A DNA stretch of 64,000 nucleotides from a virus. Lineage: Duplodnaviria; Caudoviricetes. This document shows, piece after piece, positions 4,462-60,410 of the stretch. Position numbers and translations under genes: made by a program. Below the pieces are notes generated by a model, which saw only the letters and a program-made list of their open reading frames with translations, ran no database searches and was not told where the DNA came from. How positions within the stretch are numbered: the stretch's first letter is position 1; each line of letters begins with the position of its first letter. Location: IMG/VR virus record IMGVR_UViG_3300042090_001530, positions 128,001 to 192,000 of that record. The stretch is one strand, 5' to 3'.

Positions 4462-4653
4462 GAGATCAGTATACAGCTTCGCCCTGTCTAAGGGTGCGGG
4501 GAAGGGGCTTACCCCCATGGCTCAAGCCAGGGGTCCGCGCCCCAACTCTCCGATCGATTCTGGTACCGTCCGGCACGATCGGCGCTGGTGATTCGCCCGC
4601 TCCGGGTGTCACACTGGCCTTCAGAGATCAACACGCAGAGAACAGGCAGAGTA

Positions 4654-43222: not shown

Positions 43223-44011
43223 TCAGCCTGCCGCCGAAGCGCCGACTAGGCCGGGCATGGGCGGGATCTGCTCGGCTAGGAACCCGGTCGGCTCGGCCGC
43301 GAACCGCGGTGCGGGCTCGACCTCCCACCAGGATCGCAGCGCGGTCGTCGTGCACTCCTGGTTGGTGCGCCGGTCCGTGTAGGTGACTTCGCGTTCGCCG
43401 CTGGCCTTGACCGCGACTTGCCCGCGCCTGCACTCGGCGGGGTAGTCGTTCCAGTTGACGCCGTGTTCGGTGAACAGCATCTCTTGCATCTGGTCGCCGC
43501 TGACGCCTTGCAGCCGCTTGTGGCTGATGTGCGCCTGTGCGGCCATGGAGATCGAGTTCCGGACCGCATCTCTCTGGCGCCAAAGGTAGTAGTTCGCGAC
43601 CTCGATGGTGTTCGGCAGTACGAACACGCGCGCGTCGAACAGCGGACGCCCCGGCCGGATCGAGCACAGCGTGGCGGTGGCGACAGCCGCTGAGATCGAC
43701 ACGATCTTCTGGACTTCGCCCGCGAACCACGGCTCGGTGTGCGTGCCTTCCCAGTCCTGCAGAAGGACGGAGATCTCATCCGACTGCTGGTAGGCGAACA
43801 CAGCGCCCTGCATCTCGGTGCACAGCGCCTTCATGACTTCGGCCATGTCGGCGATAAACTGCATGTCGAACGGCTTGTCGGCGCCGCGTAGGTGGCTGTG
43901 GAAAGCCCGGCCGTCAACGCGGCAGACGGCCGCCATGCGCCGCGGAAGCACGCTCTTCCATGGCGCCTCGTACGCCTTCATGCGGTCGCCGAGGGCCGTC
44001 GAGTCAGTCAT
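43223..44011 (-). CDS. thg1: tRNA(His) guanylyltransferase Thg1-like 3'-5' polymerase
   Basis: GDRMKAYE, RVDGRAFH, YQQSDEIS, FDARVF, YYLWRQRDAVRNSI, HGVNWNDYP. Confidence 0.92.
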   Translation of the reverse strand: MTDSTALGDRMKAYEAPWKSVLPRRMAAVCRVDGRAFHSHLRGADKPFDMQFIADMAEVMKALCTEMQGAVFAYQQSDEISVLLQDWEGTHTEPWFAGEVQKIVSISAAVATATLCSIRPGRPLFDARVFVLPNTIEVANYYLWRQRDAVRNSISMAAQAHISHKRLQGVSGDQMQEMLFTEHGVNWNDYPAECRRGQVAVKASGEREVTYTDRRTNQECTTTALRSWWEVEPAPRFAAEPTGFLAEQIPPMPGLVGASAAG

Positions 44012-44864
44012 GACGCCGCCTTCTTTAGGGTCACCCAGGGTGCAAGCTGCCCGTCGATGATGACGCAGTCGCAGTCCGTGCAGCGTTCCTCGTTGGAGCG
44101 CACGGGGACTGAGGAGAACCGCTGATGGTCTCTCTTGAGGTGCCCGCAGTAACTGCACCGCCACAGTCGACCGATCATGCCGAGCTTCCGGATGGGCGGC
44201 GCATCTTCGGGCTCGGGGCCGGACTCGGCGATGGCCAGCTCCGGCGCCGCGTCTTCGGGTGGCGCGTCCTGTGGTTCGGGACTGACCCAGGGCATTGTCA
44301 GCCCTCCTTCTGCATGTTGCCGTCGTCGATGAGTTTGATGATCTGCTCGAACACCTCGCCCATACCCGGCCCGGCACCAGCCTGCCGCCAGTATTCGGCG
44401 ATGGCGCGGATCTCGTTGAGCCGCGTGGTGAGCCGTTCGATCTCCCGGCCCATCGCAGCGCGCGCGTTGTCGAGTCCACGGACTGCGTCGGCGAGGGGAA
44501 TCACGCCGCAGTTGTCGAGGTGCTCGCAGGCGTCCTGGACGCCGCTCCAGTCGACGGTGGTTTCAGTGTCGGCCATGTTCCATTCTCTCGCGGAGTAGGG
44601 GTCTGACGTGCCATTTTCGGCGGATTGGGGACGGCTGAGGCTCATCTAGCCGGCCTGGTCAGCGCCAGATTTCGACGCTGCTGTACTCGCGGCCGAGCGA
44701 GTCCGCGACCCGGTGCGCGACCTTTCGGGCGTCGGCGTCACTGTCGGCGGTGATCCGGCGGCGGGTGGTCTCACCGTTCGGGTGGGCGATGGATGCGGTG
44801 TAGAAGTACACGGTCGGCTCCTCAGGTCGAATCGGGTAGATCCGGGATGTCGCGTCTGGCGGGG

Positions 44865-45593
44865 TCAAGCCTTGATGGCGCCGGTCCAGATCTCGCGCGC
44901 TTCCCGCTGCATGTCTCTGCGCGCGTACGGCCCGGGAAATATGGCCTCCATGCTCCGCTTCGCGCGTGCGCACAGTGCGCGGCACAGCAGGTAGTTGACG
45001 CTGCCGATGCCGAACTGCGCCAGCGCCCAGTGCGCGGTCACGGCCAGACCGTCGCCGTTGGCCCGCAGGCCCACCCAGCGGGCTTCGTCATCCGTCACCG
45101 CGATCGAGGCGAGCGGGCCGAATCCGAGACGGTCGGCGTACTGGCCGTACCGGCTGCGCACGACGTCGATCGTCTCGCGCCGGTAGCAGTCAATGATTGC
45201 CCCGACCGCGCGGGACGCATCGTCCGACAGGGCCGGTTCGACCTTCAGCCACACGCCGTGCTCAGCGGGCTCGAACGCCGCAGCGTGGGGGATGGTCGGC
45301 CGCTGCCAGCGCAGCCGGTGACTGCGGCCGCCGAGCGGGAATCCTTCGGCGGCGACCAGTTCTTTCACGATCGGCGCCCAGGCGTTCGCGGCCTCGTCGC
45401 GGGTGGTCCAGCGATGAAGCGCCGAGTAGTGGCGCAGGACGAACCGCTGCACTTTTTCGGCGGGAGTCTCGTCGGGGACAGTGAGCACGAGCATGTCGGA
45501 CCTGTCCGCCCGGATCGCGGACTTCGGGCCGGTCACGCGCCGCAGGGTGATGCCCGCGACAGTGACCAGGCTGCTGGAGTTCGTGACGGTCAT
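44865..45593 (-). CDS. YgjP/DUF45 (M48-like) protein lacking the HExxH motif
   Basis: LTVP...FVLRH..ALHRW, EGFPLGGRSHRL, YADRLG, RW.G, HWALAQF..GSVNYLLCRALC where HELxH is expected. Confidence 0.55.
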   Translation of the reverse strand: MTVTNSSSLVTVAGITLRRVTGPKSAIRADRSDMLVLTVPDETPAEKVQRFVLRHYSALHRWTTRDEAANAWAPIVKELVAAEGFPLGGRSHRLRWQRPTIPHAAAFEPAEHGVWLKVEPALSDDASRAVGAIIDCYRRETIDVVRSRYGQYADRLGFGPLASIAVTDDEARWVGLRANGDGLAVTAHWALAQFGIGSVNYLLCRALCARAKRSMEAIFPGPYARRDMQREAREIWTGAIKA

Positions 45594-46213
45594 CGGGCGC
45601 TCAGGCTGCGGCCGTGCTCGTCGGTGATGCCGTCATAGAACCGGACGTTCCAGTAGTCGGCCTGGGTGTCGGAACCGTCGTAGTTGTAGGCGTTCATGAG
45701 GCCCTTCAGTTCGCGGACGGGCGCGGTCAGTTCGGGGGACTGGGTCCAGGTCGGGTGCCCGTGCCGCTCGGCCGGGATCTTCCAGGCTTCGGGGATGTTG
45801 ATCAGGGTGATGTCGATCGAGCAGCCGCCGGAGAAGCGCTCCGAACGCACGGAGATCTTGAGGTCGGCGGGGGCGTCGCCGATCGGGTCGATGAGCTTAA
45901 GGTCGGCGGCCTGCTTGCCGAGCGGCGTCGCCTTGGCGGCCTTGCGGATCAACTTGATCTCGTCGCGGATGAGTTTGGAGATCTCAGCGACGTTCAGCTT
46001 CGACGTGGCGGCGTACTTCGCGCCGTACCAGATCGTGTCGATGAACTCGGCGCCGGACGTCGCCGCTGCGGCCAGGCGCTCCAGGATGCGCTCAAGGGCG
46101 ACCCTGGCGAGGGCCGCCTCGTGGACCGGGGTGTTGGGGTGCTCGGCCAGGGCGCGGAGCTTCTCGATGCGACCTTCGATACCGGTCTTCTTCGCGGTCT
46201 TCGTGGCAGGCAT
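45590..46213 (-). CDS. Polyvalent-type protein: DUF2786-like N-terminus + LPD29-like domain
   Basis: RIEKLRALAEHPNTPVHEAALA; ISVRSERFSGGCSIDI; AYNYDGSDTQADYWNVRFY. Confidence 0.7.
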   Translation of the reverse strand: MPATKTAKKTGIEGRIEKLRALAEHPNTPVHEAALARVALERILERLAAAATSGAEFIDTIWYGAKYAATSKLNVAEISKLIRDEIKLIRKAAKATPLGKQAADLKLIDPIGDAPADLKISVRSERFSGGCSIDITLINIPEAWKIPAERHGHPTWTQSPELTAPVRELKGLMNAYNYDGSDTQADYWNVRFYDGITDEHGRSLSAR

Positions 46214-46233
46214 CCCGGGCTCCTTTGTCGTTG

Positions 46234-46304
46234 TTTCTGTAATACATATACTAGCTCTGGGCGCACCCTTCCGCAACCGATTCCCTTGGATTTCTGTATT
46301 ACAT
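46234..46304. promoter_or_regulatory. Paired operator-like repeats in the divergent intergenic region
   Basis: TTTCTGTAATACAT (46234-46247) and TTTCTGTATTACAT (46291-46304), each with the palindromic core TGTAwTACA. Confidence 0.6.
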
Positions 46305-46320
46305 CTGCCAGACTGGGAGT

Positions 46321-46575
46321 ATGGGACGACCGGCAACCGGACAGACGCCCGTGCGCACCGTACGCATCGGCGACGCATGGGACGAGGCGCGCGCGAACGC
46401 GGAAGCCGACGGCGAGAAGTTCGCCGAAGTCCTCGAACGACTCCTGCGGCGCTACAACACCGCGGCGGCCAGGCGCCGGAAGCTGGCCACTCAGCAGGTC
46501 CATCACCTCGACGGCGACCCGCGCAACAACGACGTCGCCAACTTGGAGCTGCGCGACCAGCCCGACGCGCCGTAG
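46321..46575 (+). CDS. Ribbon-helix-helix-like regulator with C-terminal HNH-like remnant
   Basis: MGRPATGQTPVRTVRIGDAWDEA; tail QVHHLDGDPRNNDVANLEL. Confidence 0.65.
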   Translation: MGRPATGQTPVRTVRIGDAWDEARANAEADGEKFAEVLERLLRRYNTAAARRRKLATQQVHHLDGDPRNNDVANLELRDQPDAP

Positions 46576-46732
46576 CCACGTGCGCCTGCTGTCGCCCTAC
46601 GGCGCACGTGTGGCCACTGCGGATCCCGATAGGCGCACGGCCCGGTCTCGGTATCGCATACGTCTGACGATCTACCTGCGCCGCAGGTAGGTTGCCCCCT
46701 CGGTGGATTCATCTTTTCGAGGGGGATTTCTC

Positions 46733-47308
46733 ATGCGTACTCGCGTACTCGCCGTAACTGCAGTCGCCGCGTCCGGGCTGCTGCTCGCGGGCTGCCAGCC
46801 GTCCAGCACGGTGTCCACGACCGCCGCGAATACCGGAGGCGCGAAGGCCAGCGCTGCTGCAGCGCCCGCTACGACTGCTGCCGCGGCGAAGGCGGCCGGG
46901 CTCGGCGACACCATCGACGTGACCGGCGAAACGTCGGGCGAGAAACTCGCGGTCACGCTCGTCAAGGTCGACCCTAAGGCGCAGTCGACGGACGGATTCT
47001 CGTCGCCGCCTGCTGGTGACGCGTACTTCGCGGCGCAAATCCAGATCAAGAACATCGGCACGGCCGCTTACTCTGATTCCGCGGACAACTGCCTCGCAGT
47101 GAAGGACGGCAAGGGGCAGCAGTTTCAGACCGATCTGATCAGTTCGGTTTCGTCCGGGCCTACGATGGATCAGCTGAACATCGCGCCGGGGGACACGTCG
47201 CTCGGGTGGGTCGTGTTCGATGTGCCGATCGGGGATGCGGTAGCGAAGGTCCAGTTCACAGAGGACAGCGGGATGGGCGGCGACACTGCGCAGTGGTCGA
47301 TCGGCTGA
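46733..47308 (+). CDS. DUF4352-like lipoprotein
   Basis: Lipobox LLLAGC, Ala/Thr linker, YFAAQIQIKNIG...IAPGD...GWVVFDVP. Confidence 0.75.
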   Translation: MRTRVLAVTAVAASGLLLAGCQPSSTVSTTAANTGGAKASAAAAPATTAAAAKAAGLGDTIDVTGETSGEKLAVTLVKVDPKAQSTDGFSSPPAGDAYFAAQIQIKNIGTAAYSDSADNCLAVKDGKGQQFQTDLISSVSSGPTMDQLNIAPGDTSLGWVVFDVPIGDAVAKVQFTEDSGMGGDTAQWSIG

Positions 47309-47320
47309 CGGCAGGTCTCG

Positions 47321-47364
47321 GCGGGGCGTCGTGGCGGCTTCAGGCCGCTTGCGGCGCCCCGTTT
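47321..47364. terminator. Bidirectional hairpin terminator, copy A
   Basis: GGGGCGTCG...CGGCGCCCC between convergent stops; homologous to 49562-49604. Confidence 0.6.
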
Positions 47365-47373
47365 GTTGCGTCG

Positions 47374-49089
47374 TCAGTTCGTCTTCGTGTTGGTCAGGTG
47401 CGGCCCGATATACCCGACGATCATCTTGCCGGTCAGGCCCTTCGTGTCGTCGAGGAAGTAGACGCGGGGGCTGATTGATCCTCTTCGCTCGATCTGCAGG
47501 TGCGCCTGCATGGTCGTGCTGCCGTCCGGATCCACGTCGCTGGGGACCGGGAAGACGCGTTCGTCGCCCCAGTGGGCCATGGTCGTGTCGGATTCGGACA
47601 TCGCGACCTGCGTGAGCGGCCAGCCTGCGGCGGCGCGTCCGGATCTGCAGTACTGGTAAAAGCCCGCATGGTCTGCATGCGTGGCCGCGTATCCGTCCAG
47701 TGCGCGCAGGCCCTGCCACGTTTTGGCCGCCCACACCCTGGAGCGTTCGTTTTCGTCGAGAGACAGGGCTATCTGCGCGTCGGCGGTCAGCAACACACCC
47801 GTAAGGCCCGCGGCGCGCTCGAGGAGTTCGGCGAACGAGCCTGGGGCTCCCGGCGTGTCGCTGACTGCCGCGGCGTCTGCGTGCCGCCCCTGGGCGTACA
47901 GGAGGCCGCGCAGCACCTCGGCTTCGCCGCGGCCCCGCTCCGCCTCCTCCAGTGCCCACAGAGCCTCTTCCGTGTCCGCGTCGGACTGTCCGGCGAGCAT
48001 GGCGTTCTGCTGCTCGAGCGACGCGATGGCGCGTTGCGAGAGCATGTCGGCGCGGCCGGCCTCACGCAGGTCGTCGTCGGCTTGCTTGAGGAGCGCGGTG
48101 AGGTCGGAGACTTCCTGCTGGAGGGCTTGGGCATCGACTGTGCCGCGCACGAGGTTGATCGCGGCTTGGCGGGCTTCCCGGTGGGCTTCGCCGACCTCCG
48201 GGAACGTGACCGTGCGCAACGCGTCCGGGAGCGGGGCGGCGGTGGCGAGCCGGTGCAGCGTGTTCGGCAGGGACCGCCATGCCGCGTCCGCAGGGTCCGA
48301 TAGTCGCGCGGCGGCGAGGAACCGGTGCCGGGCCGCGTCGGCTGGCCATGCCGGGTCCACGCCGGGATGGAACGTGCGGATCGAGCCGGTGGCGACCCGG
48401 TGGTCTTCGCCGATCTGCTGCCGGAACGCATGGATCGCATCCTGGTCGGCGAGCAGGTAGAGGGATGCGGCGCCAGCGCACAGCGGCATCGCGCGTTGCA
48501 TACGGTCCGACCAGACCGGTTCCGGGCTGAACGGGCGCGCCGCCACCAGCGCGGGTTTACGCCGGTCCGGGTCGCAGAGGATTTCCACGAGATCGGCCAC
48601 GTCGTACTGGCTGATCTCCTGGGTGCCGCGGGTGAGTTTCGCGGGCCCGTCTTTGGGCTGGAGCGCGGCGACGAGGGAGCGGATCAGGGCGGGCCAGCCG
48701 GGGGTGACGAGCGTGCCGGGGTTCGGGAACGCCTCGAGGCCGACGGCGACGTGCATGGCACCGTTGTCGGCGACTGCGGTGACGGTGGTGCGCCAGGTCG
48801 CGTCCGTGTTCTCTTCGCGCAACTGGAGCCGGATCGCTGCTTCGGCGCCGGCCGGGTTGTAGACGACCTGGTTGATGAGGGTCGCGGTGTCGGTCAGGGC
48901 GTGGTGGCCCGGGGCGAGTGGGGCCTGGTAGTTCTTGCCCGCGAGCCATTCGGCGGTGACCGAGCGCGTCTTGCTGAATGCGTCGGGGTTGCGGGTGGTG
49001 AACGTGGCGCGGTGCGCGAGCGGTCTGTCGGGGTCGCCCGTCGGGGTCGTCGGGGCTAGATCGGCAGGAAGGTGGCTAACCGCGGTCAT
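47374..49089 (-). CDS. Large unknown protein with coiled coil and possible C-terminal RelE-like/toxin domain
   Basis: ATG 49089; heptad region QQEVSDLTALLKQ; ends HLQIERRGSISPRVYFLDD...IVGYIGPHLTN. Confidence 0.6.
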   Translation of the reverse strand: MTAVSHLPADLAPTTPTGDPDRPLAHRATFTTRNPDAFSKTRSVTAEWLAGKNYQAPLAPGHHALTDTATLINQVVYNPAGAEAAIRLQLREENTDATWRTTVTAVADNGAMHVAVGLEAFPNPGTLVTPGWPALIRSLVAALQPKDGPAKLTRGTQEISQYDVADLVEILCDPDRRKPALVAARPFSPEPVWSDRMQRAMPLCAGAASLYLLADQDAIHAFRQQIGEDHRVATGSIRTFHPGVDPAWPADAARHRFLAAARLSDPADAAWRSLPNTLHRLATAAPLPDALRTVTFPEVGEAHREARQAAINLVRGTVDAQALQQEVSDLTALLKQADDDLREAGRADMLSQRAIASLEQQNAMLAGQSDADTEEALWALEEAERGRGEAEVLRGLLYAQGRHADAAAVSDTPGAPGSFAELLERAAGLTGVLLTADAQIALSLDENERSRVWAAKTWQGLRALDGYAATHADHAGFYQYCRSGRAAAGWPLTQVAMSESDTTMAHWGDERVFPVPSDVDPDGSTTMQAHLQIERRGSISPRVYFLDDTKGLTGKMIVGYIGPHLTNTKTN

Positions 49090-49306
49090 GGTTGTCGACT
49101 CTCGGCCGGTTCCGGCAGTGGTGAGATTGCGCGCATGGGGTCCTCCTGGCTGGGGGCTGGGTGGCACGGCTTGCGGGCCGCGTGACGCCCGATGTTCGGC
49201 TGATCTGCCGCTATACCCATTGTTGCGCAACGTGCTGACAATTTCAGGGCGACGGTGTCACTGCAGCGGTCGCCTGAGGCACGGGAAAAGCCGCTGCATC
49301 CAGCGG

Positions 49307-49552
49307 GTGGCCGACACGCGCTCGAGCGATGTGGCGTCGAGTCTGCCGTTCACGAAGACGGTGCCGCTCGATTCGAACGCCCAGTACTACAACGTGACCG
49401 CGCAGTTGTCCGGTGCCGGCCAGGTGTCGTGCACGACCGTGGTGGACTGGGACGGGCAGTCGGTGACCCAGTCCGGGCAGGCATCGGGCGGCTACAATCT
49501 CGCGGCGGCCGAGGTGTGCTCGGACTTCTCCGGCGGCTGGCAGACCTGCTGA
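49307..49552 (+). pseudogene. Probable 5'-truncated remnant of a secreted MmpS-like protein
   Basis: SLPFTKTV...TAQLSGAGQVSCTTVVD...C...C-stop; no signal peptide or RBS upstream. Confidence 0.4.
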
Positions 49553-49561
49553 GCTGTGCTG

Positions 49562-49604
49562 GCAGGGCGTCGTGGTCGCTACAGGCGGGTGCGGCGCCCC
49601 GCTT
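49562..49604. terminator. Bidirectional hairpin terminator, copy B
   Basis: GGGCGTCG...CGGCGCCCC; abuts the cas2 stop. Confidence 0.55.
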
Positions 49605-49912
49605 CACCGTCCCGGCCCGTCCGGTTCCGCCGGGTTGAGCGCGATCAGTGCGAGGCCGTCCAGGTCGACGGGAGCGCGTCGACTCTCGCCGGCCGTCTGG
49701 ATCGCGAAGCGCTGTTCGGTGTCGGCGGCGTGGACGAGTACGGCACTGCCGTCGCCGACCGACGCGGCGATCACTGCCCACAGTTCGTCGCGGACCTTCG
49801 CGGACAGCGTCCCCACGTACAGGCCGGGCGTAGGTTCGAGCATCCAACGGCTCAGGGCGCCGCGGACGTGCGGCGCGACTGCGGTCGCGCTGATGACGGT
49901 CAGGTTGCTCAC
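49604..49912 (-). CDS. cas2: Type I-E Cas2
   Basis: LTVISATAVAPHVRGALSRWMLEPTPGLYVGTLSAKVRDELW; GTGA overlap with the cas1 stop. Confidence 0.93.
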   Translation of the reverse strand: MSNLTVISATAVAPHVRGALSRWMLEPTPGLYVGTLSAKVRDELWAVIAASVGDGSAVLVHAADTEQRFAIQTAGESRRAPVDLDGLALIALNPAEPDGPGR

Positions 49913-50910
49913 GGCCCGTCCTGCCCTCGGCCGTGGTTGGTGCCGCTCGGTACCGAACCGGCTTCCGGGTCCCAGAGTTCGAATGCGTTGGCCAGTTCGA
50001 CATTGCCTGCGGGTTCGATCCCCGGTTCGAACAGGCGCTGGATGTCGCGGACGATGTTCGGCATGAGCCGGAACAGGGTCAGTCCGCGCCGGAACGCGCG
50101 CCTGGCGTCGCCTTCGGGGTCTTCGGATGCGTGCAGGGTGAACGCGAGCGGGATGGTGAGTTCGGCCTTGTACAGGTCGGCGATGTCGTACACGAACGCG
50201 TGGCTGGTGCCGGCGTGTACGAATCCGAGGCCGGGGGAGCAGCCGAGCGCGGTGATCGCGGCGTGGACGATGCCGTACAGGCACTGGTTGGCTGCGGTCA
50301 GGGCGGCGTTGACGGGGTCTTGGCTTTCCCAGTCTTCGGGGTTGTAGGAGCGGCGGAACGCGTGCAGGCCGTGCTGTTTGGCGAGGCGCCTGTAGAGGGA
50401 TTTCATCTGCCAGCCTTCCAGCCCGCGGAGCGTGCCCAGTTTGACGCCGTCGGGCAGTTGCCCTTCCGCAGTGGGGAACCGGTGGGCGTACATGCGTTTG
50501 GCGACCGTGAGCCGCTTGGCGGGGTCGGCCCAGGCGGCTGCCTGCTTTTCGAGCCAGCGGCTCGACCGGCTGGACGGGGTGATCGCGGCGTAACAGCGGA
50601 CGGTGCCCCAGCCGGTGAACACGATGGTGGTGCCGTGTCTGGCGAGGGTGGCGACTGCGGGGTTGGTGATGGAGGTTCCGGGGCCGAGGAGCAGGCAGCT
50701 GATGGCGGCGGTGGGGATGCGGAGGCGGCGTGTCGGGGCGCCGACGGCGGGGAATGCGAGGACGCCTGTGTCGTCTTGGGTGATGCGCATGAGGTCGAGG
50801 AACAGGAACGAGAGGCTGTCGCCGACGCGTGGGAGCATGGCTGCGGTGGGTGCGGCGATGCGGCGTCGGGCTTGCTGGGTGTTGGGTTGGGGTTGGTTCT
50901 CTGGGTGCAT
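49909..50910 (-). CDS. cas1: Type I-E Cas1, catalytic residues intact
   Basis: LPRVGDSLSFLFLD, LLLGPGTSIT, LRGLEG (E), LGFVH (H), FVYDIADLYK (D); likely ATG 50910. Confidence 0.95.
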   Translation of the reverse strand: MHPENQPQPNTQQARRRIAAPTAAMLPRVGDSLSFLFLDLMRITQDDTGVLAFPAVGAPTRRLRIPTAAISCLLLGPGTSITNPAVATLARHGTTIVFTGWGTVRCYAAITPSSRSSRWLEKQAAAWADPAKRLTVAKRMYAHRFPTAEGQLPDGVKLGTLRGLEGWQMKSLYRRLAKQHGLHAFRRSYNPEDWESQDPVNAALTAANQCLYGIVHAAITALGCSPGLGFVHAGTSHAFVYDIADLYKAELTIPLAFTLHASEDPEGDARRAFRRGLTLFRLMPNIVRDIQRLFEPGIEPAGNVELANAFELWDPEAGSVPSGTNHGRGQDGP

Positions 50911-51003
50911 CCGTTGTTGATAGCGCGGTTTCGCAGAGGGCTGAATGCTTGTCGCACGAACGAGTGACGTGTCGATGTTCGGCCGGTCCGGATGAGGATC
51001 TCC

Positions 51004-51460
51004 CGATCTTCCCGTGCGCTCGCGGGCCAGACCCTGGATGAAGAGGCGTCCGCGCGACCCCGACAGATCTTCCCGTGCGCTCGCGGGCCAGACCCGACGG
51101 CTCGTCATCGTCCGGCAGTGCCCTTAGATCTTCCCGTGCGCTCGCGGGCCAGACCGGAACTCGCGGCGGCCGGAGTGGTGGACGGCAGATCTTCCCGTGC
51201 GCTCGCGGGCCAGACGCGTCATCCGGCAGATAAACTCGGCCCCGTTGAGATCTTCCCGTGCGCTCGCGGGCCAGACCTGATCGGGGTGCGATCAGTCCTG
51301 CGCATTGCTAGATCTTCCCGTGCGCTCGCGGGCCAGACTGCCGCCGTCGCCGCGGAGACCGCTGCGGAGAAGATCTTCCCGTGCGCTCGCGGGCCAGACT
51401 CTCGGTCACCTGGTCGAGGTAGCCTTCGGCGAGATCTTCCCGTGCGCTCGCGGGCCAGAC
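51004..51460 (-). CRISPR. CRISPR array: 8 repeats, 7 spacers (six of 32 nt, one of 33 nt), type I-E-like 61-nt period
   Basis: Repeat on minus strand GTCTGGCCCGCGAGCGCACGGGAAGATCT; forward-strand starts 51004, 51065, 51126, 51187, 51248, 51310, 51371, 51432. The divergent copy is at 51004 (trailer) and an AT-richer leader-like segment is at 51461-51495. Confidence 0.97.
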
Positions 51461-51484
51461 AGTTCGTGGCCAGCGCAAACACTC

Positions 51485-51660
51485 TTGAGTTTTACTCACG
51501 AGTCAAGGGAAGCCGGGGGATCACTCCCCCGAGATGACCCGCCCCGTCGCCGAGACTGGCCTTCCTGCTTCGACAGCGGGGTCGAGAGCCGCCGGTCACC
51601 CGACGGACTTTGCCCACCTCCACAGGCGTTTAGACTCTCCCCGATATCCGAGGCGAGCGG
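51485..51660 (-). ncRNA. omegaRNA-like scaffold overlapping the 3' end of the dead TnpB
   Basis: GGGGAGAGTCTAAACGCCTGTGGAGG...GAAGCAGGAA...GGGGGAGTGATCCCCC hairpin, ending near TCAA (51485-51488), as in TnpB 3' ends. Confidence 0.6.
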
Positions 51661-53283
51661 TACCGCATGGTGCAGGATATTGCGCGCAGCATTGACCTCG
51701 CGGTCAAGCTTCATACCGCACTTGATGTTCCCGCACCGGAAAACCACCTGCGTAAGCGGGATGCTTGGGTCTCGCCATCCACACTTGCAACAGGTCTGAC
51801 TCGACGGCAGGTCCCCGGCCGCAGCCCGGAACCGCGTACCCCACTGCGCCGCCTTGTACTCCAACTGGCGCCGCAACTCGGCAGGCGCCGTGTCCAGGAT
51901 CGCCCGGTTGAAGCCGGCCTTCACCTTCACGTCGCTGCCGGGCGCCTCGACGGTGCCCTTCGCGGACCCGGTCATCTGCCGGACATTCAGGTCGCGGACA
52001 GCGATCTCCGGATAGTTGATCGCTATGCTCGCGGAGATCTGGTTCAGGGTGCCGCGCCGCGCCTCCGCAGTCCGATGATGCACGCGGCCGAGCCGCCTGA
52101 CCGCCTTGGCACGGTTCGCCGACTGCGCCTGACCGCGCACGAACGGCTTACGCGCCACAGCCTGCGACGCCTTCACCAAAGCCCGCTTGTGCCTCTTGCC
52201 GTACCGAGGATTCTCATACGCAGTCTCGTCCGACAGGGCGACCAGGGTACGAACACCCCACTCGACGCCGACGGCCGGGCGCATCCGCTGCCGTTCCTTG
52301 GAGACCTTCTGCCGGGCCCGGGAGACCTCCTCGCGGTGCCGCATCGCCTCCGGGGACAGTTCGCACAGCACCGACGCGTACCAGCGGGAGCCGCCCCGGG
52401 AGATCGTCACCGACTTGACCACCGCGTGGCCCCGGTCGATCAGCCGCGCGAGGGGCTTGCAGGACTCGAACAGCCGGACCGAACCGATCCGCGGCACGTT
52501 CAGCCGGCGGTGTCCGTCGGGCCGGATCGACGGGTTGTGCACATCGTGGAACAGGGTGAACGAGTCGGTCGAGCGGCCCTTCTTCTTAAACCGGGGCCTG
52601 CCCATCGCCCGGCCGACCCTGGCCCCGGTGCGCGACGCCATCCAGTTCTGCATCGCCGCCTGGGCGCGGTCGAAGCCGTTGGTGAAGCAGTACACGGAGA
52701 CTTCGGGATGCCACGGGGAGCCGCCGTCTGCGGCGTCCTGGTCGCGGATTTCGCGCCACATGGTGGTGCAGTCCATCGCGGACGGGATCGCGTCGCCGCG
52801 CTCGAATCGGGCCTTCTTGAACTGCAGCACCTCGCGGCGCACGGCAGCGAGTCGCTCCTTGATCTCCAGCAGGTCGGGGCGCGTCTTGTCCTTGACTGCG
52901 GCCATCAGGGCTTTGCGCTCGTCGTCGAGCCGTTTGGTGTCGGCGGCCAACTCGGCGGCCTCGGCTTTGAGGATCGGCCGGGCCTGCTTGTCCCACTGCT
53001 TGATCCGCTCGCCGCGCACCTGGGCCGTCCACGCAGCGGTGGACTTCTCGTCCAGGCCGTCGGGCGGCTGCGGCATCGGCCCGGCGATCCGGGTGATGAC
53101 CTCGTCGCGGCGCGCCTCCCAGGCGAGTTGGGCTTGGGACATCCATGCGATGCCGCGGTTGGTGGCCCACCGGGTGGCGCCAGCATGCCGGGCGAAGTCG
53201 GCGAGTTGGGCTTGGGTTGGGTCGAGGGCGAACCGATAGGCGCGCAGAACTGGCGCGGGCGCTTCGGTTTCAGCGGTGGCCAT
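51496..53283 (-). CDS. tnpB: CRISPR-adjacent TnpB/Cas12-like protein, RuvC-inactivated (595 aa)
   Basis: LRAYRFALDPT HTH, RPRFKKKG, Zn finger CCKC/CGNIKC; RuvC-I GVEWG (D>E341), RuvC-II AVRDL (E>R430), RuvC-III DREVNAA (D>E529). Confidence 0.9.
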   Translation of the reverse strand: MATAETEAPAPVLRAYRFALDPTQAQLADFARHAGATRWATNRGIAWMSQAQLAWEARRDEVITRIAGPMPQPPDGLDEKSTAAWTAQVRGERIKQWDKQARPILKAEAAELAADTKRLDDERKALMAAVKDKTRPDLLEIKERLAAVRREVLQFKKARFERGDAIPSAMDCTTMWREIRDQDAADGGSPWHPEVSVYCFTNGFDRAQAAMQNWMASRTGARVGRAMGRPRFKKKGRSTDSFTLFHDVHNPSIRPDGHRRLNVPRIGSVRLFESCKPLARLIDRGHAVVKSVTISRGGSRWYASVLCELSPEAMRHREEVSRARQKVSKERQRMRPAVGVEWGVRTLVALSDETAYENPRYGKRHKRALVKASQAVARKPFVRGQAQSANRAKAVRRLGRVHHRTAEARRGTLNQISASIAINYPEIAVRDLNVRQMTGSAKGTVEAPGSDVKVKAGFNRAILDTAPAELRRQLEYKAAQWGTRFRAAAGDLPSSQTCCKCGWRDPSIPLTQVVFRCGNIKCGMKLDREVNAARNILHHAVPLASDIGESLNACGGGQSPSGDRRLSTPLSKQEGQSRRRGGSSRGSDPPASLDS

Positions 53284-53340
53284 GTTCTACTCCTTCCCGG
53301 TTCGGCCCTGCAGGTGCGTCAGATTTTAGCGGGTACGTCC
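53284..53340 (-). promoter_or_regulatory. Putative promoter and RBS of the tnpB-array-cas operon
   Basis: -10-like TAAAAT (~53322-53327) and AGGAG RBS 6 nt before the ATG; -35 not clear. Confidence 0.45.
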
Positions 53341-55552
53341 GACACTGGCGCGGCAGTCTCGCGAGCCCCTCGTGGCGGGTGGGCGCCGTCACCACATCCG
53401 GCAAGCGCGCCAGAGCCCGACCGCCACAGCCTCCATGCGGTGCTCGATCAGCCATGCGGCGGTCGCGTCCACACCCCGCGTGGCGCGCAGCCGGACCCGG
53501 GTCCTCCACGGCAGTGGCGGGTGGCGTTTCCACTGGCCGTTCGGCTGCCGATAGAGGTAGGGCGCGGGCTGTCGGTCAGTCACCGTCGCGCACCCCATCC
53601 TTGCCGTTGAATCGCAGCGATTCGCGGATCTGGCGCTCGGGGAGCGGTTTGCCGCGTCCGTCCGTCCATGGCCGGCCCACGGGTCGATCGGCGTGCGTGT
53701 AGGCCCAGACTCTCGCATGGTCGCCCAGGTACCAGAGGGGTGTGCCGCGGCCGTCGGTGCGCACGGTGAAGCCTTCGCCGGCTTCGTAGGTGAACGATGC
53801 ACCGGACGGTTCGGAAGCGTGGCTGGGGTCGATCAGGTCGGCGACAACTCTGAGGCATCTACCCGCGAACGCGAGGATCACGAGGCGCCCCACTCGGCCG
53901 CTGTCGCGACTTGGCCGGTCACCATCCTGGATGCCTTCCCATGTAGACGTCGTACCCCACGGCGCCCTCGACGGCCACGATCCCGGCCGCCGCTTCCTGT
54001 CCGGCCTGAACGTACCCGACGTAGTTCGGGTCGCTGATCGCGGCGGCCGTGGGCGGCACGCCGAACACGCTGCCGAAGCCGAGGTCGTCTTCGGGTTCCG
54101 TAGCGGCGGTCGCGTACTTGGACCGCGGCGAGCGGGGACGGTCCGGGTGTGGTGCCGCGCGGGTCACACGGTTCTCTCGGTCGCCCTTGTGCATCCGTTC
54201 CCGAAACTCGTGCAGGGCGATGCCGCCTTCGGGCCAGGTTGCGCCGGTCGCGAGCCAACCGTCGAGCTGCGCGAGCATGATGGACTGCGGGGTGGGTTCG
54301 CGGTCGAGCATTGGGGCTCCAGCGTTCCACCAGCGAACGCCCTCGTTGACCCGGTCGTGGGTCATCGGGAACTTGTCGGCGGTCAGGCCGAGTTCGGCGC
54401 GGTACGCCTCGAAAACGGCGAGCCGTTCCTTGCCGGGCCATTCGCCGGGGTAGGCGGGGAGCAGGCGGTCGGGGATGTCCATGTCACCCATTCTCGCCGC
54501 CGCCTGCCGCGATCCGTTCGATCTCGAGCCGGTCACGCTCCAGCCGTTCCTCAAGTTGCTCCAGCGTGGACGGGGCGAACGTGTCGCAGCCGCACCGGCC
54601 GTAGCGCGTGCCGCCGGGCAACTCGCGGGCGACGCTGACCGCGCACGGACCGCGCTCATGGGAGGCGTAGTGGTGGCGGCAGTTCTCGCACCCGACCGGC
54701 AGGAACATCGCGCAGTCGGCGCACACGAACCCGCCGACGGTGAACCGGACGTACGGGGCCTTCGGCTCGCCGCAGGTGCACTCGCAGCATGAGCGACAGC
54801 GCTCGCAGAGTTCCGCTTCGCCGCCGGGATGCCACCAGTTGCTTCCGCCGTGGCAGTCGCGGCAATCCGGGTGCCCGGTCCTGTGGGCCGGCGGCCCGCA
54901 GGCAGCGCTGGCCGTGTCGAGTGGCGGCGGGGCGTTGCGCTGCGAGTACGGCACGATCGGCAGGTCGGGGCGCATCGCGGACAGTACCGCGTCGATCGGC
55001 CCGTTGGTGAACCCGAGTTGATCGGTGGTGATCGCGGTGAACGTGGCTCCGCAGCCGGGTTGCCCGTGGCTGTCGCCGTGCCCGGAGATCGTCTCATGTG
55101 CGGTTTGTCCGCGGACGAGGGTGCCGCGGCCGCAGTGCGAGCACTTCGATGTATAGCTACTGACGATTATGGTCGCGGTCGCGCCTGGCGTGGACGGCTC
55201 GTCGCGGTATGCGTTGTACGAAGTCTCGCTCACTGCTCGCCACCGCCCACGCCGGCCCGCCCGGCTAGGAACTGCTCGACCCACTGCGCGTTCGCCTCGC
55301 GCGAGTCGTCATACTCGATCCACCGGTCGCTGGCACTGATCTCGCTGGCCGTGATGACGCCTTCCCGGAAGCACTCGTCCCATTCGTCGCTCAGCCGGTC
55401 CCTCACGCGCGGGTCGGTCGCCCGGTCCCGCTCGGCCATGATCAGAGGGCAGTTGCGGAAGAACGTGCCGTCCGACTGCTTGCGATACCAGGTACGGGGC
55501 GCGGGTCCGCTTTCGGTCCGGCGGTGGCGGGTTCGACCCCAGCGGATGCCGG

Positions 55553-56494
55553 TCACGACTCGCCACCTTCCTCGCCGACCCCGAGTGCCTTGTCGAGCCG
55601 TTCCGCATAGTCGGGTGCGAGCAGGTCCGTGATCGCGAGCCCGTGGGCGAAGGAGTAGCCGCGGAAGTTCTCCGGGCTGATCTCCAGCATCCCCGGGTTG
55701 CGACGGAGGCCTTCGAGCGCCCGGCGCCAACGCTCGTCCTCAGGCAGTTCATACCACAGGTCCGAGGAGCAGTCGGCGTACAAGGCCTCGCGGTCTGCGG
55801 CTTCGGGGTAGCCCTGTTCCCATTCGGCACGGCCGTCTTCGGTCTGCGCCCAGTAAGGTGCCCAGCCCTCGGGCATCGGCGGCGGGGACCAGTGCGCAAC
55901 ATCTGCGTTCGGGAACTGGTCGCACACCGAGTAGGACATGACTATGGGTTCGTCATCGCGGTCGAGCAGTAGTTTGATGACGTCCCGCCAGCCCTGATCC
56001 GACCACTTCCGCTCGTCGTTGCGGTCCGTGTACCACTGGCCCTCGCGGAAGATCCCCGCGTTGAGGCCCTCGGCGATGACGCTCGCGAGCCACGCCCGGT
56101 TGATGCCCTCGACGTAGCAGTGGATCTCGCACTGGCCGTGCAGCCGCGCCGCGAGCCTGACCGTGTCGTTGCCGTACTTCAGGGCCGTGTTCAGCCGGAG
56201 CGCGAACGACTCGATCTCCTTGTCCTTCCATGTGAACATCTCACCGTAGAAGCCGCTCCGGAACGCGGTGGCGAACGTGTCGCGCCACATCGGAATCCAG
56301 CCGGGGGACTGCCGGTCCGTCTTGTGCAGGTAGTGGTCGGGGCGGATGAGGCCGAGGATCCGGTCCACGTCGTCGTGGTAGATGGATCCGAGGAATCCGT
56401 CCGTCAGGTGGTCGACGAGTAGCCCGCAGTGCGCGCGTTCGGAGCCGCGCAGTTCGGCGTCGCCGTGCCGGGAGTGAAAGTAGACGCGACTCAT
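55553..56494 (-). CDS. Hypothetical phage protein
   Basis: MSRVYFHSRHGDAELRGSERAH...; ATGA-type overlap with the upstream ORF. Confidence 0.55.
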   Translation of the reverse strand: MSRVYFHSRHGDAELRGSERAHCGLLVDHLTDGFLGSIYHDDVDRILGLIRPDHYLHKTDRQSPGWIPMWRDTFATAFRSGFYGEMFTWKDKEIESFALRLNTALKYGNDTVRLAARLHGQCEIHCYVEGINRAWLASVIAEGLNAGIFREGQWYTDRNDERKWSDQGWRDVIKLLLDRDDEPIVMSYSVCDQFPNADVAHWSPPPMPEGWAPYWAQTEDGRAEWEQGYPEAADREALYADCSSDLWYELPEDERWRRALEGLRRNPGMLEISPENFRGYSFAHGLAITDLLAPDYAERLDKALGVGEEGGES

Positions 56495-56680
56495 CGGCTC
56501 GTTCCGTTCTCGGCGTCGTGCTTCGGTGCGACGCCGTCGAGGATCTGCCGGATGTCGCGGGCGAGCTCGAGATAGTTCTGCTCGCCGCCGTAGGGATGCT
56601 GCGCGAGACGCTCCTCGACCCACTCGGGCGGCGGCAAGAGTTCGGCGAGACGCGTCTTGAGCCGGTCCAGTTGGCCGACG

Positions 56681-56959
56681 TCACCACTCGTCATCGTCGT
56701 CCACCTCCTCTTCCGGGTGCAGCGTCGCGTGCAGCGCCTTCGTGGCCATCTGCTCGAGCCGGTCGCATTGGGCCGGGGTGAACGTGCCGTCCGTGCGGGC
56801 GAGCGCGACACCGGCCTGCACACGCCGGATCTTGTCCGGGTAGGAGCCTTCCGCGGCGAGGATCGTGGTCCGGTAGTGCTCGTACAGCCATGCCGGGCCG
56901 ACTTGGACCTGCGTAGTGCGATCACCAGCCAGCAGGGTGACAGTGACAGTCTCGGGCAC
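56681..56959 (-). CDS. Hypothetical protein, paralog of 41115..41399
   Basis: AGDRTTQVQVGPAWLYEHY...KIRR...TFT...DRLEQMA...HPEE. Confidence 0.65.
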   Translation of the reverse strand: MPETVTVTLLAGDRTTQVQVGPAWLYEHYRTTILAAEGSYPDKIRRVQAGVALARTDGTFTPAQCDRLEQMATKALHATLHPEEEVDDDDEW

Positions 56960-58009
56960 GTCAGCCTCCGAGTTCGGCGATGTACGTCGGGTAGACGGTC
57001 GGTCCCGCGTAGTGCAGGCATTCGCACTTTGGCTTGATCGTGCCGACGCCGGACTTGTGGAACGGCTCGCCCTTCCATACGCACGCACCCGAGCCGTCGG
57101 CATGGAAGCTGATGCCGTGCCGGCACACGCAGATCGGCTTCGGGTCGGGCTTCAGTTTGGGCGCGCGGCGCAGCCTGCCAACGCGCCCGGCACCGTAGCC
57201 GCCGGCAAGGATCCCGGCCCCGGCGAGCAGCGAGAACGGGTCAAGCATTAGAGCCCCTAGCGGCACCTGCGTGCGACGGCGTCGCATGCTCCTTGGTCTC
57301 GTGCTCGTCGGCGAGCGCCATCCAGTCGGCCAGCGTCGGCTCGCCCGTCTCCTCGTCCGGCTGGACCCAGATCAGTCGCACGTCCTCCTGGTAGTTGTCG
57401 TCCTCGGTGCAGTCGAGACACCACAGTGCCGGCTTCAGGCTCGCCTCGTCGTAGCCGGGCTGATAGCGGCGGTAGTCGGTCTGCATGGTCATCGTCTCCT
57501 CGTTGCCGGTTTTGGTTTTCACGCCGTCTCACCTTCCGCCCGTTCGATCACTTCGACGAGCGCGCCTATGTCGGCGATCCCGAACGCGATCCGCTGCCCG
57601 CTGGCCAGGTCGACCGCGAGCGTCAGGTTCCTGCCGAGGCCGTAGTACGCCTCGTGCACTGTCGCGTCGAACGTGACGCGGACGCGGCGAGTGCGCTTGA
57701 TGCCCTCGACCAGTTCGTCCTCTGCGCCAGCCTCGTGCAGTGCTGGGCGCGGAGGGATGAGCGGTTCGGGCTTCGGCTCGCGCGGACGCTTCGGCTTCCC
57801 GGCGGGCGCTGGCTTGGCGGCGCTCGGGCGCTGAACCGGCCGCAGGGGCACCTCGAACAGTGCGCCCGGCTCATCCGTCGCCGAAGGGCTCGAGAGCGGC
57901 GACGCGGCTTGCCGCGGCTTCCCTTGGGCGCCCCTACGTCGGGCTGCGTCGAACGGGATGACGACTCCGCTGGCGGGATCGTCCATCGTCTTCTCCTTGC
58001 TGGTATTGG

Positions 58010-60379
58010 TCATGCGGCGGTTCGGGCCTTGAGCATCAGGCCCATCACTTCGGCTGCCGCGGCCTGCTCCGAGAACGCGTCGCCCGCGTTCCCGTCCAGC
58101 ACTGCGGCTGTGATCGAACGCTTTCCGGAGACGACCTGCCACATGTACTCGTCCACCGTGCCCTCGGCGAGGAACACCGGGAAGTCGACGGGTCGGGTCT
58201 GGCCGATCCGGTGCATGCGCGCCGCCATCTGCTCGATCTCCGCCCACGTCCACGGCACCTCCGCCATCGCCCCGTGCGCCGCAGCGGTGAGCGTGTGGCC
58301 GACGCCGCCGGCCTGCGTGGAGACTGCGATCACCGGGGCCTTGCGGGCGGGCAGCGACTGGAACGCGGCCTTGTCCGCCTCGACGGACTCGGTGGACTGT
58401 CCGCCCTGGATCCGCAGGCCGGTGAACGTGGCCGCGTAGTGGTCGACGACCGGCCGGTGGTGCGCGGCCACCATGACCTTCTCGCCACGGGCCGTGAGCT
58501 TCTTCACGTGCCGCGTCACGGTGGCGGTCTTGACGTTCCCGACGAGTTGCCGCAGCAGGTTCAGGCGCACCAGCACTTCCGCGGACATGGCCTTGCGGCA
58601 GAACTGGTCGCGGGCGACCGCGTCGGACAGGTCGATGCCGCGCGACTCGGCGAGCTCGATCAGTGCGGCGAGGAAGTCATCCTCCGCACTCCGGTAGGCG
58701 GCCATCGCTTTCGCATTCACGGCGTCCGGGCCGAGCCACTCCGGGCGGATCGTGAGCTGCGGCAGGTTCAGTGCACTGTCGCCGCGGCGCAGGTAGATCC
58801 CGGCCGAGCGCAGCTTCAAGTGCAATTCCTCGAGGTTGGAGGCGCCGTCGAACGTGGTGCCCCACTCGCCCGCCTGCGGGCCGCAGTACCGGTATTTGAA
58901 CGGCCACTCGCCGCCCATGTCCTCCAGGCGCCCGAGGATCCGCAGCTGCTGGAGTAGCTCCTTGGGTCGGTTGACGATCGCCGTGCCCGTCAGGCACAGC
59001 ACGAGTCCGCCGCGGCCGGCGACGTGCGTGCCGAGCGTCTCCATGGCCTGAGAGCGGGCGGCGGCGGCCTCCTTGCCGAAGTGCGACTCGTCCACGATCA
59101 GCGCCTTCGGGTTCAGCTTCACCAGGGCCTTGGCCCATCCGGCGCGGTTGCGCTTCGCGCCGTCCACCGTGGCCTTGTACGTCTCCTTGAGCACATCGAA
59201 CCCGATGACCACGACGTGCGTCCCGGGCGGGACCGGGGTCGGGGCGTTGCCGGAGGCGACGAACACGCGCCGGTCGGGGAAGAACTTCGCGACCTCGGCC
59301 AGCCAGTTCAGCCGCAGCGACGTCTTGCACACGATCACTGCGGGCCAGGCGTCGTCCACTGCGACGGCGGCAAGGGACAGCAGGGTCTTGCCGAGGCCCA
59401 TCTTGTCGCCGATCAGTACCTGTCGGTTCGCGGCGATGAACTCGAGGCCCGCGTGCTGGTGCGGCTTCAACGTGCCCGCGAGGCCCGGAACGGTGATCTC
59501 GCCGCGCCCTGGGGAGAGGGCGATCGATGCGCACAGGTTGTACGCCTCGCGCTCCACGGCCCCGCCGGCAGCCTCACGCACGTCCTGCGCCACGCGCAGC
59601 CCGCGGGCGTCCGCGAGTGCCAGGGCCTCCGGGATCGAGCCCTGGGGGACTGTCCAGGCCCCGGACGGCTTGTCCCAGCGGCGACCGGGGATCGCACGGA
59701 CCTCATCGAGGACGCCGCTACCGGGGTACGTGTCGAAGCGGATCGCGATCGACCCGTCGTCGGTGAACGCGACGTTCGGCTCGGTCGGGGTCTCGGGCAC
59801 GACGGGCGCGGGCGGGTTGTCGGCCAGCTGCTCGACCTCCGGGTCCACGGGGATGCCGTGGGTGCGGGCGAACTCGCGCACCTGCGGCGCGGAGGACGGC
59901 GGGTACAGGTTCACCTTCGACCGGGCGCCGAACTCGGCGCGGTACGCGCGGCCGGGGATCTGCTTGGTGGCCTCGACCATGTCCGGGTCGTACGGGAAGC
60001 CGAGCACGATCACGGGCTGGCCGCCATTGGTCGCGGTCTCGCAGAACGAGAGGGCGGCGATGCGCTCCGCGTCGCGCTGTGCCTGGCGCCGCCCGGTCAG
60101 GGTGTCGCGCACCTGAGCTTCGGGATCCTCGGGCACCGGCAGGTCCTCGAACTCGATCCCGGCGGCGGCCAGCTGGCCGCGGTAGATGCGGGCGAGCTGG
60201 TAGGCGCCGACCGCTGCGTCCTCGTCCCACAGGGCGGCGGGGATCGAGGCGAGGTAGTGGCCGAGCGGGACGTCCCCGGCGTTGAAGCCGCGCCCGTCAT
60301 CCTCGCGCGCTCCGTCGCACTGCCCGGCGATCACGCCGATGGCCTCGGCGAGAGGGCTCCAGTCCAGCTTCGTCATCAT
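58010..60379 (-). CDS. SNF2-family (HARP/SMARCAL1-like) helicase
   Basis: LKPHQ, GDKMGLGKT, DESH, LTGTAIVN, QMAARMHRIGQ; N-terminal HARP-like RRWDKPSGAW; GAGGAG RBS before ATG 60379. Confidence 0.9.
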   Translation of the reverse strand: MMTKLDWSPLAEAIGVIAGQCDGAREDDGRGFNAGDVPLGHYLASIPAALWDEDAAVGAYQLARIYRGQLAAAGIEFEDLPVPEDPEAQVRDTLTGRRQAQRDAERIAALSFCETATNGGQPVIVLGFPYDPDMVEATKQIPGRAYRAEFGARSKVNLYPPSSAPQVREFARTHGIPVDPEVEQLADNPPAPVVPETPTEPNVAFTDDGSIAIRFDTYPGSGVLDEVRAIPGRRWDKPSGAWTVPQGSIPEALALADARGLRVAQDVREAAGGAVEREAYNLCASIALSPGRGEITVPGLAGTLKPHQHAGLEFIAANRQVLIGDKMGLGKTLLSLAAVAVDDAWPAVIVCKTSLRLNWLAEVAKFFPDRRVFVASGNAPTPVPPGTHVVVIGFDVLKETYKATVDGAKRNRAGWAKALVKLNPKALIVDESHFGKEAAAARSQAMETLGTHVAGRGGLVLCLTGTAIVNRPKELLQQLRILGRLEDMGGEWPFKYRYCGPQAGEWGTTFDGASNLEELHLKLRSAGIYLRRGDSALNLPQLTIRPEWLGPDAVNAKAMAAYRSAEDDFLAALIELAESRGIDLSDAVARDQFCRKAMSAEVLVRLNLLRQLVGNVKTATVTRHVKKLTARGEKVMVAAHHRPVVDHYAATFTGLRIQGGQSTESVEADKAAFQSLPARKAPVIAVSTQAGGVGHTLTAAAHGAMAEVPWTWAEIEQMAARMHRIGQTRPVDFPVFLAEGTVDEYMWQVVSGKRSITAAVLDGNAGDAFSEQAAAAEVMGLMLKARTAA

Positions 60380-60410
60380 GTCCACTCCTCAACCAGCCTT
60401 TCAGCGTCTA

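Follow-up and report, generated by a model that had tools for sequence, protein, structure and literature searches.

TranC effectors derive from TnpB and are active nucleases; their ωRNA has been functionally split into a tracrRNA and a crRNA, the latter coming from an adjoining array, and they are reported to use reRNA as well as crRNA. A related arrangement has been resolved for Cas12n. In the RdCas12n sgRNA, the anti-repeat forms stem 5, positions -4 to -2 form a pseudoknot that extends stem 1, and the tracrRNA overlaps the effector ORF (PMC12216341). The RdCas12n structure paper sees Cas12n as an early intermediate and cites Cas12m as silencing invaders by blocking transcription. Two preprints bear on the wider family: one finds that c2c9 shares PAMs with co-resident type I systems, and the other, a landfill virome study, describes virus-encoded V-U4-like genes. 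For the phage-borne Cas12r, use of type I-E adaptation machinery has been proposed (bioRxiv 10.64898/2026.04.20.719267). How type V arrays arose was left open by Altae-Tran et al. 2023 (PMC10691335): they may have grown from the ωRNA, or tnpB may have landed beside existing arrays.

The locus described here lies in a 64,000-nt stretch of DNA (hereafter the window, whose numbering we use throughout) belonging to a 202,490-bp IMG/VR virus record that is rated 98% complete and encodes a large terminase, portal and tail fibres. The source is a jumbo tailed phage of high G+C content, and its host is presumably an actinobacterium. On the minus strand, the order is a TnpB-like gene, a scaffold, a 21-nt leader, a repeat-spacer array, cas1e and cas2e. 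The effector gene (P0001, 595 aa; 51496-53283, minus strand) has an intact ORF that runs through the putative tracrRNA-like, ωRNA-derived scaffold (51482-51660, minus strand), so that the scaffold overlaps the last ~165 nt of the ORF (codons ~540-595). The end of the ORF lies 35 nt from the CRISPR array (51004-51460, minus strand), which has eight repeats and seven spacers with the leader at its high-coordinate end. The cas1e gene (P0002; 49909-50910, minus strand) matches TIGR03638 at 323 bits (cut-off 216) and solved Cas1 structures over its full length; cas2e (49604-49912, minus strand), whose start overlaps the cas1 stop codon, matches TIGR01873 at 76 bits (cut-off 33).

No match to cas7e or cas6e and no second CRISPR array were found in the 202-kb phage genome, and no cas3-like gene was present among the window ORFs tested. 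The effector gene is single-copy in the phage genome, and no transposase family matched the adjacent ORFs tested. A scan of 50800-53500 for sigma-70-type promoters returned no promoter-like site and no terminator was called at the scaffold end, both scans being uninformative for high-GC actinophages.

The phage encodes two more TnpB-family genes, at window 2867-4420 (minus strand) and at genome C1:10881-12836 (L033:5882-7834, plus strand). In both, the D/E/D-type motifs are intact, identity to the dead effector is only 29-33%, and no array adjoins the gene. Just downstream of cas2 lies a 618-aa ORF (47374-49230, minus strand) with no Pfam, NCBIfam or PHROG match; a 571-aa ORF (9880-11595) occupies the same relative position in the related locus L002. 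A homologue of Thg1-like tRNA-His guanylyltransferase (43223-44479), a YgjP-like metallopeptidase (44865-45593) and a SNF2-type helicase (58010-60385), all on the minus strand, are also phage-encoded.

The best solved-structure match of P0001, by phmmer against the PDB, is RdCas12n (PDB 9J09; E 1e-60, residues 150-562); the same search matched ISDra2 TnpB at E 1e-22 and LaTranC at E 6e-8. P0001 scores 170 bits against guided_TnpB and 207 bits against NCBIfam IS607_TnpB, the latter under its cut-off of 350. Going by the best solved homologue, we class P0001 as a probable Cas12n/TnpB-like, type V-N-like protein. Its zinc-finger cysteines, which are invariant among the relatives, are kept; FHDVH stands at the position of the PAM-reading HHDV(K) motif of AcCas12n-like proteins, and a coiled-coil insertion of ~85 aa follows the N-terminal HTH.

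The RuvC residues of RdCas12n are D287, E386 and D484 (RdCas12n structure paper). In a HMMER alignment, these correspond to E341, R430 and E529 of P0001, with D431, beside R430, retained. E/R/E is universal among the 25 cluster representatives of the close clade; D/E/D is found in 76 other relatives, and a rearranged D/E/H in a further group. In a tree, the E/R/E proteins group as a single clade subtended by a long branch. The sequence-only reading had called the gene a dead tnpB. Loss of the catalytic triad (E341/R430/E529) bears out half of that description, but the gene is intact and conserved, not decayed; judged by its catalytic residues, the effector is predicted to be nuclease-dead. Such a protein would most likely bind spacer-matched targets but leave them uncut, silencing or blocking them in the manner of Cas12m. 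Arrays also adjoin relatives whose triad is intact (L017, L019, L036, L008 and L009), and the CRISPR link thus appears independent of nuclease loss. The dead-clade relatives P0021, P0023, P0024 and P0026 (L006) have an N-terminal extension of ~100 aa matching Pfam PF05345 (Ig-like), and some of them carry a further insertion.

All the ωRNA features that the sequence-only reading had named at the 3′ end of the gene were found on the minus strand: AACGCCTGTGGAG at 51630-51618, GAAGCAGGAA at 51571-51562, and the hairpin given below. A TCAA lies at 51488-51485, and exactly 24 nt (51484-51461) separate it from the first repeat (51432-51460, minus strand), as had been proposed. These features go well beyond what chance would produce. 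The scaffold motifs are invariant or almost so across 14 loci. An alignment of 12 scaffolds, from upstream of stem 1 to the anti-repeat, gave an RNAalifold consensus of 49 pairs, 25 of them with compensatory changes, and the scaffold has a minimum free energy (MFE) z-score of -2.9. No Rfam family was matched in a permissive scan of 44000-58000.

Stem 1 (51639-51653, minus strand), which carries the loop GAU at 51648-51646, is paired in 94% of cells of the 14-locus alignment. The conserved hairpin CGGGGGAGTGATCCCCCG / CGGGGGAGUGAUCCCCCG (51514-51531, minus strand), directly 5′ of the anti-repeat, is paired in 99% of cells, with compensatory changes in four of its six pairs. Beyond the anti-repeat, a terminal hairpin, CUCGUGAGU-AAA-ACUCAAGAG (51482-51502, minus strand), contains the stop codon of the effector (51498-51496) together with the TCAA. 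Its AACTCAA motif is kept in 9/14 loci, and the hairpin may form the 3′ terminus of the scaffold RNA or be left over from a transposon end.

Contacts between the scaffold and the repeat were tested on a 14-locus alignment that starts at stem 1 and takes in the whole first repeat. The sequence-only reading had suggested a weak 6-bp pairing of CTTCCC with GGGAAG in the repeat. CTTCCC at 51512-51507 (minus strand) is indeed complementary to the repeat GGGAAG, and the pairing proved longer, extending to 9-10 covarying pairs. The whole anti-repeat, GCUUCCCUUG (51504-51513, minus strand), pairs with the 3′ half of the repeat (...CAcGGGAAG), its partner in the first repeat being window 51444-51434. 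Changes on both sides were seen in 9/9 pairs of this helix, with 84% of cells paired across the 14 loci. When the 3′ partner was slid by 1-3 columns, pairing was 45-61% and the covariation score went from 0.46 to 0.10-0.16.

A second contact joins the stem-1 loop GAU (51648-51646) to AUC at repeat positions -4 to -2 in 14/14 loci. This pseudoknot is 100% paired with both-side changes in two of its three pairs; pair 60-383, for example, is UA in seven loci, CG in six and GC in one. Co-folding of scaffolds and repeats likewise favored the native combinations: the anti-repeat duplex has a mean energy of -14.6 kcal/mol with own repeats compared to -10.8 kcal/mol with foreign repeats, and 0/20000 permutations were as good. 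Relatedness among the loci inflates such shuffle statistics, so we rely mainly on the double changes in individual pairs. The window's own anti-repeat helix carries a single mismatch (U opposite C); its energy of only -11.7 kcal/mol ranks 7th of 13 repeats, and the MFE fold of the window transcript includes this helix in cis. A candidate internal helix between an upstream GGAAG in the scaffold and CTTCC was rejected as the conserved partner, having no compensatory changes and one pair broken in 6/13 loci.

An array-less relative, L035, allows the comparison to be carried to a scaffold that has the same hairpin as the CRISPR-linked ones. Its stem-1 loop is also GAU. In L035, CGTCCCG, the homologue of the anti-repeat, pairs in cis with CGGGGCG across a 6-nt loop; the stem is followed by ATCC (...GATCC) and then by the flank, which corresponds to the guide. 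By its predicted fold, L035 is an unsplit ωRNA form. The CRISPR-linked loci have, in place of the 6-nt loop of L035, a terminal hairpin, then the leader end and the repeat's 5′ half. The covariation of the anti-repeat and pseudoknot, taken together with L035, supports the scaffold as a putative tracrRNA-like partner of the CRISPR repeats that descends from an ωRNA, in line with the proposal made from the sequence alone. That reading had also described the locus as a snapshot of ωRNA splitting. The comparison of L035 with the CRISPR-linked loci agrees with splitting, but the snapshot is not unique, since the layout has already been published for Cas12n/V-N (PMC12216341).

We next consider the 24 nt between the TCAA and the first repeat. 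All but the first three of these nucleotides form the 21-nt segment 51461-51481 (minus strand; ...GCGCTGGCCACGAACT), which abuts the first repeat. In three unrelated genomes of Actinomycetes, ordinary type I-E arrays have the motif GCTGGTCAnnAAGn immediately ahead of their first repeat, and one of these arrays adjoins a full Cascade operon. A genome scan with the leader motif gave five matches compared to three in a reversed control, a count that is not significant alone; its value is that four of the five lie at the start of genuine I-E arrays. As the motif also precedes ordinary I-E arrays, the conserved part of the 24 nt is a type I-E leader end, and it is presumably the anchor for Cas1e-Cas2e. 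The sequence-only reading had seen no room for a normal leader. A minimal 21-nt I-E leader end does exist, and the rest of the leader is replaced by scaffold. The linker between anti-repeat and repeat ranges from about 20 to about 90 nt across loci. By eye, the 24 nt could also be read as an anti-repeat in reverse complement, but L004 and others do not keep that pairing and the idea was abandoned.

Leader-end motifs were also seen in other settings. In L006, an IMG/VR 108-kb contig, a long degenerate array runs from 6983 to beyond 8240, and a leader-end-like GCGCAGGTCGCACAGG recurs before internal repeat blocks or sub-arrays, which suggests duplication or fusion of whole leader-plus-array units. 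In L015, TGTTTGCGCTGGTC at 7283-7296 matches the window-type leader end; it lies beyond the array and a terminator-like hairpin, where a gene adjoining a large serine recombinase ends. In L037 (G155:C192), an active D/E/D relative, an I-E leader-end motif and a single repeat-like unit lie ~20-60 nt after the effector gene and are followed by an ordinary gene; this could represent a naturally single-guide form or an array that has collapsed. In L039 (G291:C1:3282227-3282270), the motif precedes a solitary I-E-like repeat without an array.

The repeats are 29 nt and the spacers 32-33 nt long; a single base sets the last repeat apart. Type I-E arrays share both the 29+32 periodicity and the GATC-type repeat end. 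With cas1e-cas2e and the leader end, these features assign a probable type I-E origin to the array, the 21-nt leader end and the adaptation genes alike. The window and L002, whose effectors are 94% identical and whose flanks are nearly so, have no spacers in common (7 vs 2), which fits ongoing turnover. Spacers of the window and L013 arrays had no targets in GenBank phages; no spacer targets were found in PLSDB plasmids, and two exact 22-nt spacer seeds found none in IMG/VR. Searches of the phage's own genome and the relatives' loci gave only 14-19-nt matches (E 0.007-0.03). G001 (Saccharopolyspora rectivirgula) is the one bacterial genome with both an effector-linked array and a resident I-E system. 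There, the repeat linked to the effector is found nowhere but next to it and is distinct from that of the resident system, which sets the effector-linked arrays apart as their own I-E-derived lineage.

A search of 5.8 billion proteins recovered a tight clade of relatives with 46-94% identity, located on metagenomic contigs of up to 122 kb. No close protein relatives were found in IMG/VR by direct search, and the protein matches in GenBank phages were at most 33% identical. The order effector-array-cas1 is kept in L002, L004, L013 and the 122-kb contig. In L002, L013 and the 122-kb contig, cas1 is followed by cas2, and none was called in L004. Three contigs end inside the first repeats, as assemblies do at arrays. 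In L013, cas2 and cas1 (7899-9208) are encoded on the other strand and run toward the effector and array, which suggests that the adaptation module has been rearranged or acquired more than once.

Wherever downstream sequence is readable, an I-E-like array follows the scaffold in relatives down to 40% identity, the array-less L035 aside. In the distant relatives (L006, on the second IMG/VR contig; L015; L016; L007/L017 from Saccharopolyspora rectivirgula; L008; L009; L036; and L019-L022), the array begins 20-100 nt after the scaffold. This neighborhood is fixed across relatives, unlike that of the mobile TnpBs of IS605/IS607, which have a TnpA neighbor, occur in multiple copies and take their guide from the flank. 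In L019-L022 (Mycobacteriaceae), a locus that is identical across several samples, the active relative P0092 is accompanied by a three-repeat mini-array at 4480-4640 that starts inside the 3′ end of the ORF.

Taken together, we propose, with a probability of roughly 70%, that 51660-51482 (minus strand) is the scaffold of a phage-borne type V-N-like CRISPR locus with a dead, binding effector and an I-E-derived array and adaptation module. We hypothesize that the scaffold unit or effector mRNA reads through into the array; as the array has no room for a promoter of its own, it is presumably transcribed by read-through from the effector and scaffold. The scaffold would then pair in cis with the first repeat and in trans with all others. 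Two helices, the anti-repeat and the GAU:AUC pseudoknot, would touch the 3′ half of the repeat, and this two-helix contact would leave the spacer in the position formerly occupied by the ωRNA guide. The E/R/E effector may bind matching DNA next to an AAG-like PAM and block it without cutting. Cas1e-Cas2e would insert new spacers at the scaffold-proximal repeat, and the PAM that they select is expected to suit the effector because type I-E systems and AcCas12n both prefer AAG. The targets would likely be competing mobile elements or host genes.

Several other explanations have to be weighed against this reading. The same tracrRNA:crRNA system might carry an effector that has kept nuclease activity through a rearranged or tolerant active site. 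Two of the three triad changes are from D to E, and relocated catalytic residues occur in some TnpB lineages, among them the D-E-H sister group (PMC10691335); because D to E is conservative and D431 is kept, residual or rearranged catalysis is conceivable. However, the RuvC-II glutamate is replaced by arginine in 25/25 members, and no conserved new acidic residue was noticed in a non-systematic look, so we regard an active nuclease as unlikely. A rather unlikely explanation is that the array and cas1e-cas2e serve a host I-E Cascade while the dead protein has another role, or none, with respect to crRNA. Since the repeats keep I-E-like features, host Cascade could use them; repeat length, spacer length, leader end and adaptation genes are all of I-E type, and the phage has no nuclease-competent effector of its own. 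This explanation is difficult to reconcile with the repeats tracking the scaffold, not one I-E consensus, and with the effector-linked repeat of G001, which stays beside the effector and is unlike the resident I-E repeat.

The fixed guide that the sequence-only reading offered as its alternative would make the locus a TldR-like repressor, in which the ωRNA acts only in cis with the 24 nt as guide, the array is unrelated and the target is some conserved site, the leaders of host I-E arrays being one example. Fixed guides have precedent among dead TnpB homologues, and the 24 nt are kept among relatives while the repeats diverge. The conserved part, however, is the I-E leader end, which also stands in ordinary I-E arrays with no TnpB nearby, and with this identification the fixed guide is rejected and a minimal leader takes its place. 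Nor are the 24 nt preceded by the scaffold 3′ strand and AUC that position the guide in L035 and Cas12n. The linker spans anywhere between about 20 and about 90 nt, no site matching the 24 nt was found elsewhere in the phage genome, and the covariation of scaffold and repeat would be left unexplained; we consider a fixed guide very improbable. It is scarcely credible that the juxtaposition arose by chance, with an IS-borne tnpB inserted in the leader of a decaying I-E locus and both now relics. The lost triad would be in keeping with such decay, as would a phage genome without cas7e or cas6e, the lack of cas3 among the window ORFs tested, and a single-copy effector with no transposase beside it. 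Against this, the arrangement is kept across relatives of 40-94% identity from many samples, the ORF is intact, and the E-R-E clade has diversified yet is conserved. The scaffold covaries with the repeat, and spacer content turns over between close relatives.

Within the preferred reading of a V-N-like locus with a dead effector, we advance a broader and more tentative proposal, to which we would give somewhat under even odds. It holds that the phage runs a self-updating silencing system, with a dead Cas12n supplied with spacers by its own Cas1e-Cas2e, and that V-N arrays are captured I-E arrays. Under this proposal, a pre-existing I-E array would have been captured together with its leader end and the adaptation genes added later, as opposed to duplication of an ωRNA segment. 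The I-E repeat end (...GGGGATGATCC), by mimicking the ωRNA 3′ strand of this TnpB lineage (...CGGGGCGATCC in L035), would have made such capture possible.

What appears to be new here is a monophyletic E/R/E clade, its carriage on phage and phage-like contigs and its link to an I-E-derived array, along with the linkage to cas1e-cas2e in the closest relatives. A literature search found no description of a dead-triad Cas12n-type clade (it may be among V-U6 to V-U45), of such a clade on large phages, or of a direct Cas12n-type linkage to cas1e-cas2e, and no explicit evidence of captured I-E arrays for Cas12n-type systems. On the question of array origins, the effector family offers sequence-level evidence, for one lineage, for the route in which tnpB came to lie beside an existing array; that evidence consists of the I-E leader end, the I-E repeat/spacer geometry and the I-E cas1-cas2. 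The unsplit ωRNA (L035) and the split form are both open to direct comparison, and the locus bears on how Cas12n is supplied with spacers, the effector and an I-E adaptation module being physically joined here. If the proposal is correct, a virus would here be using an adaptive, RNA-guided system for silencing, and the effector would offer a compact (~500-600 aa) natural DNA-binding platform.

Among described systems, type I-E shares with the window cas1e, cas2e, the 29-nt repeat, 32-nt spacers, the leader end GCTGGTCnnnAAGn and the GATC-type repeat end; the phage differs in having no cas7e or cas6e, and scaffold replaces the rest of the leader. TldR proteins resemble the window effector in being TnpB-family members with a lost RuvC triad that are often phage-borne and presumed to bind without cleavage. 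They use one fixed short guide fused to the scaffold, without an array or cas1-cas2, whereas the window guides are expected to come from an array with turnover. Cas12m (V-M) and Cas12k (V-K) are likewise small type V effectors that bind without cutting, but they are assigned to different TnpB lineages, and Cas12k works with Tn7-like genes that the window locus does not have. In the Thermus Lalka phages, the TnpB-like effector Cas12r is also followed by I-E-like repeats of 29 nt with spacers of 32-33 nt (bioRxiv 10.64898/2026.04.20.719267); unlike the window effector, it is an active nuclease, is tracrRNA-free, has no cas1/cas2 of its own and sits on a different TnpB branch. TranC shares the split-RNA layout, but LaTranC is only distantly related (E 6e-8), and the window effector has a dead triad and no evident usable cis guide.

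The closest counterpart is Cas12n (V-N, formerly V-U4/c2c9; RdCas12n and AcCas12n), an actinobacterial family. As in the window, its tracrRNA overlaps the 3′ end of the ORF, the C-terminal tail of the protein is encoded over the tracrRNA, the array lies directly downstream, and repeat and scaffold are joined by an anti-repeat stem and a pseudoknot at -4 to -2. FHDVH in the window effector resembles HHDV in AcCas12n and is the sole pointer to its PAM; the Cas12n PAM is 5′-AAN, and an AAG-like PAM is expected for the window locus. Cas12n has a RuvC D/E/D triad and cleaves dsDNA, in contrast to E/R/E in the window. Unlike Cas12n, the window system is carried by a jumbo phage and its effector has the coiled-coil insertion of ~85 aa; and while c2c9 was described without an adaptation module (preprint), the window effector is linked to cas1e-cas2e.
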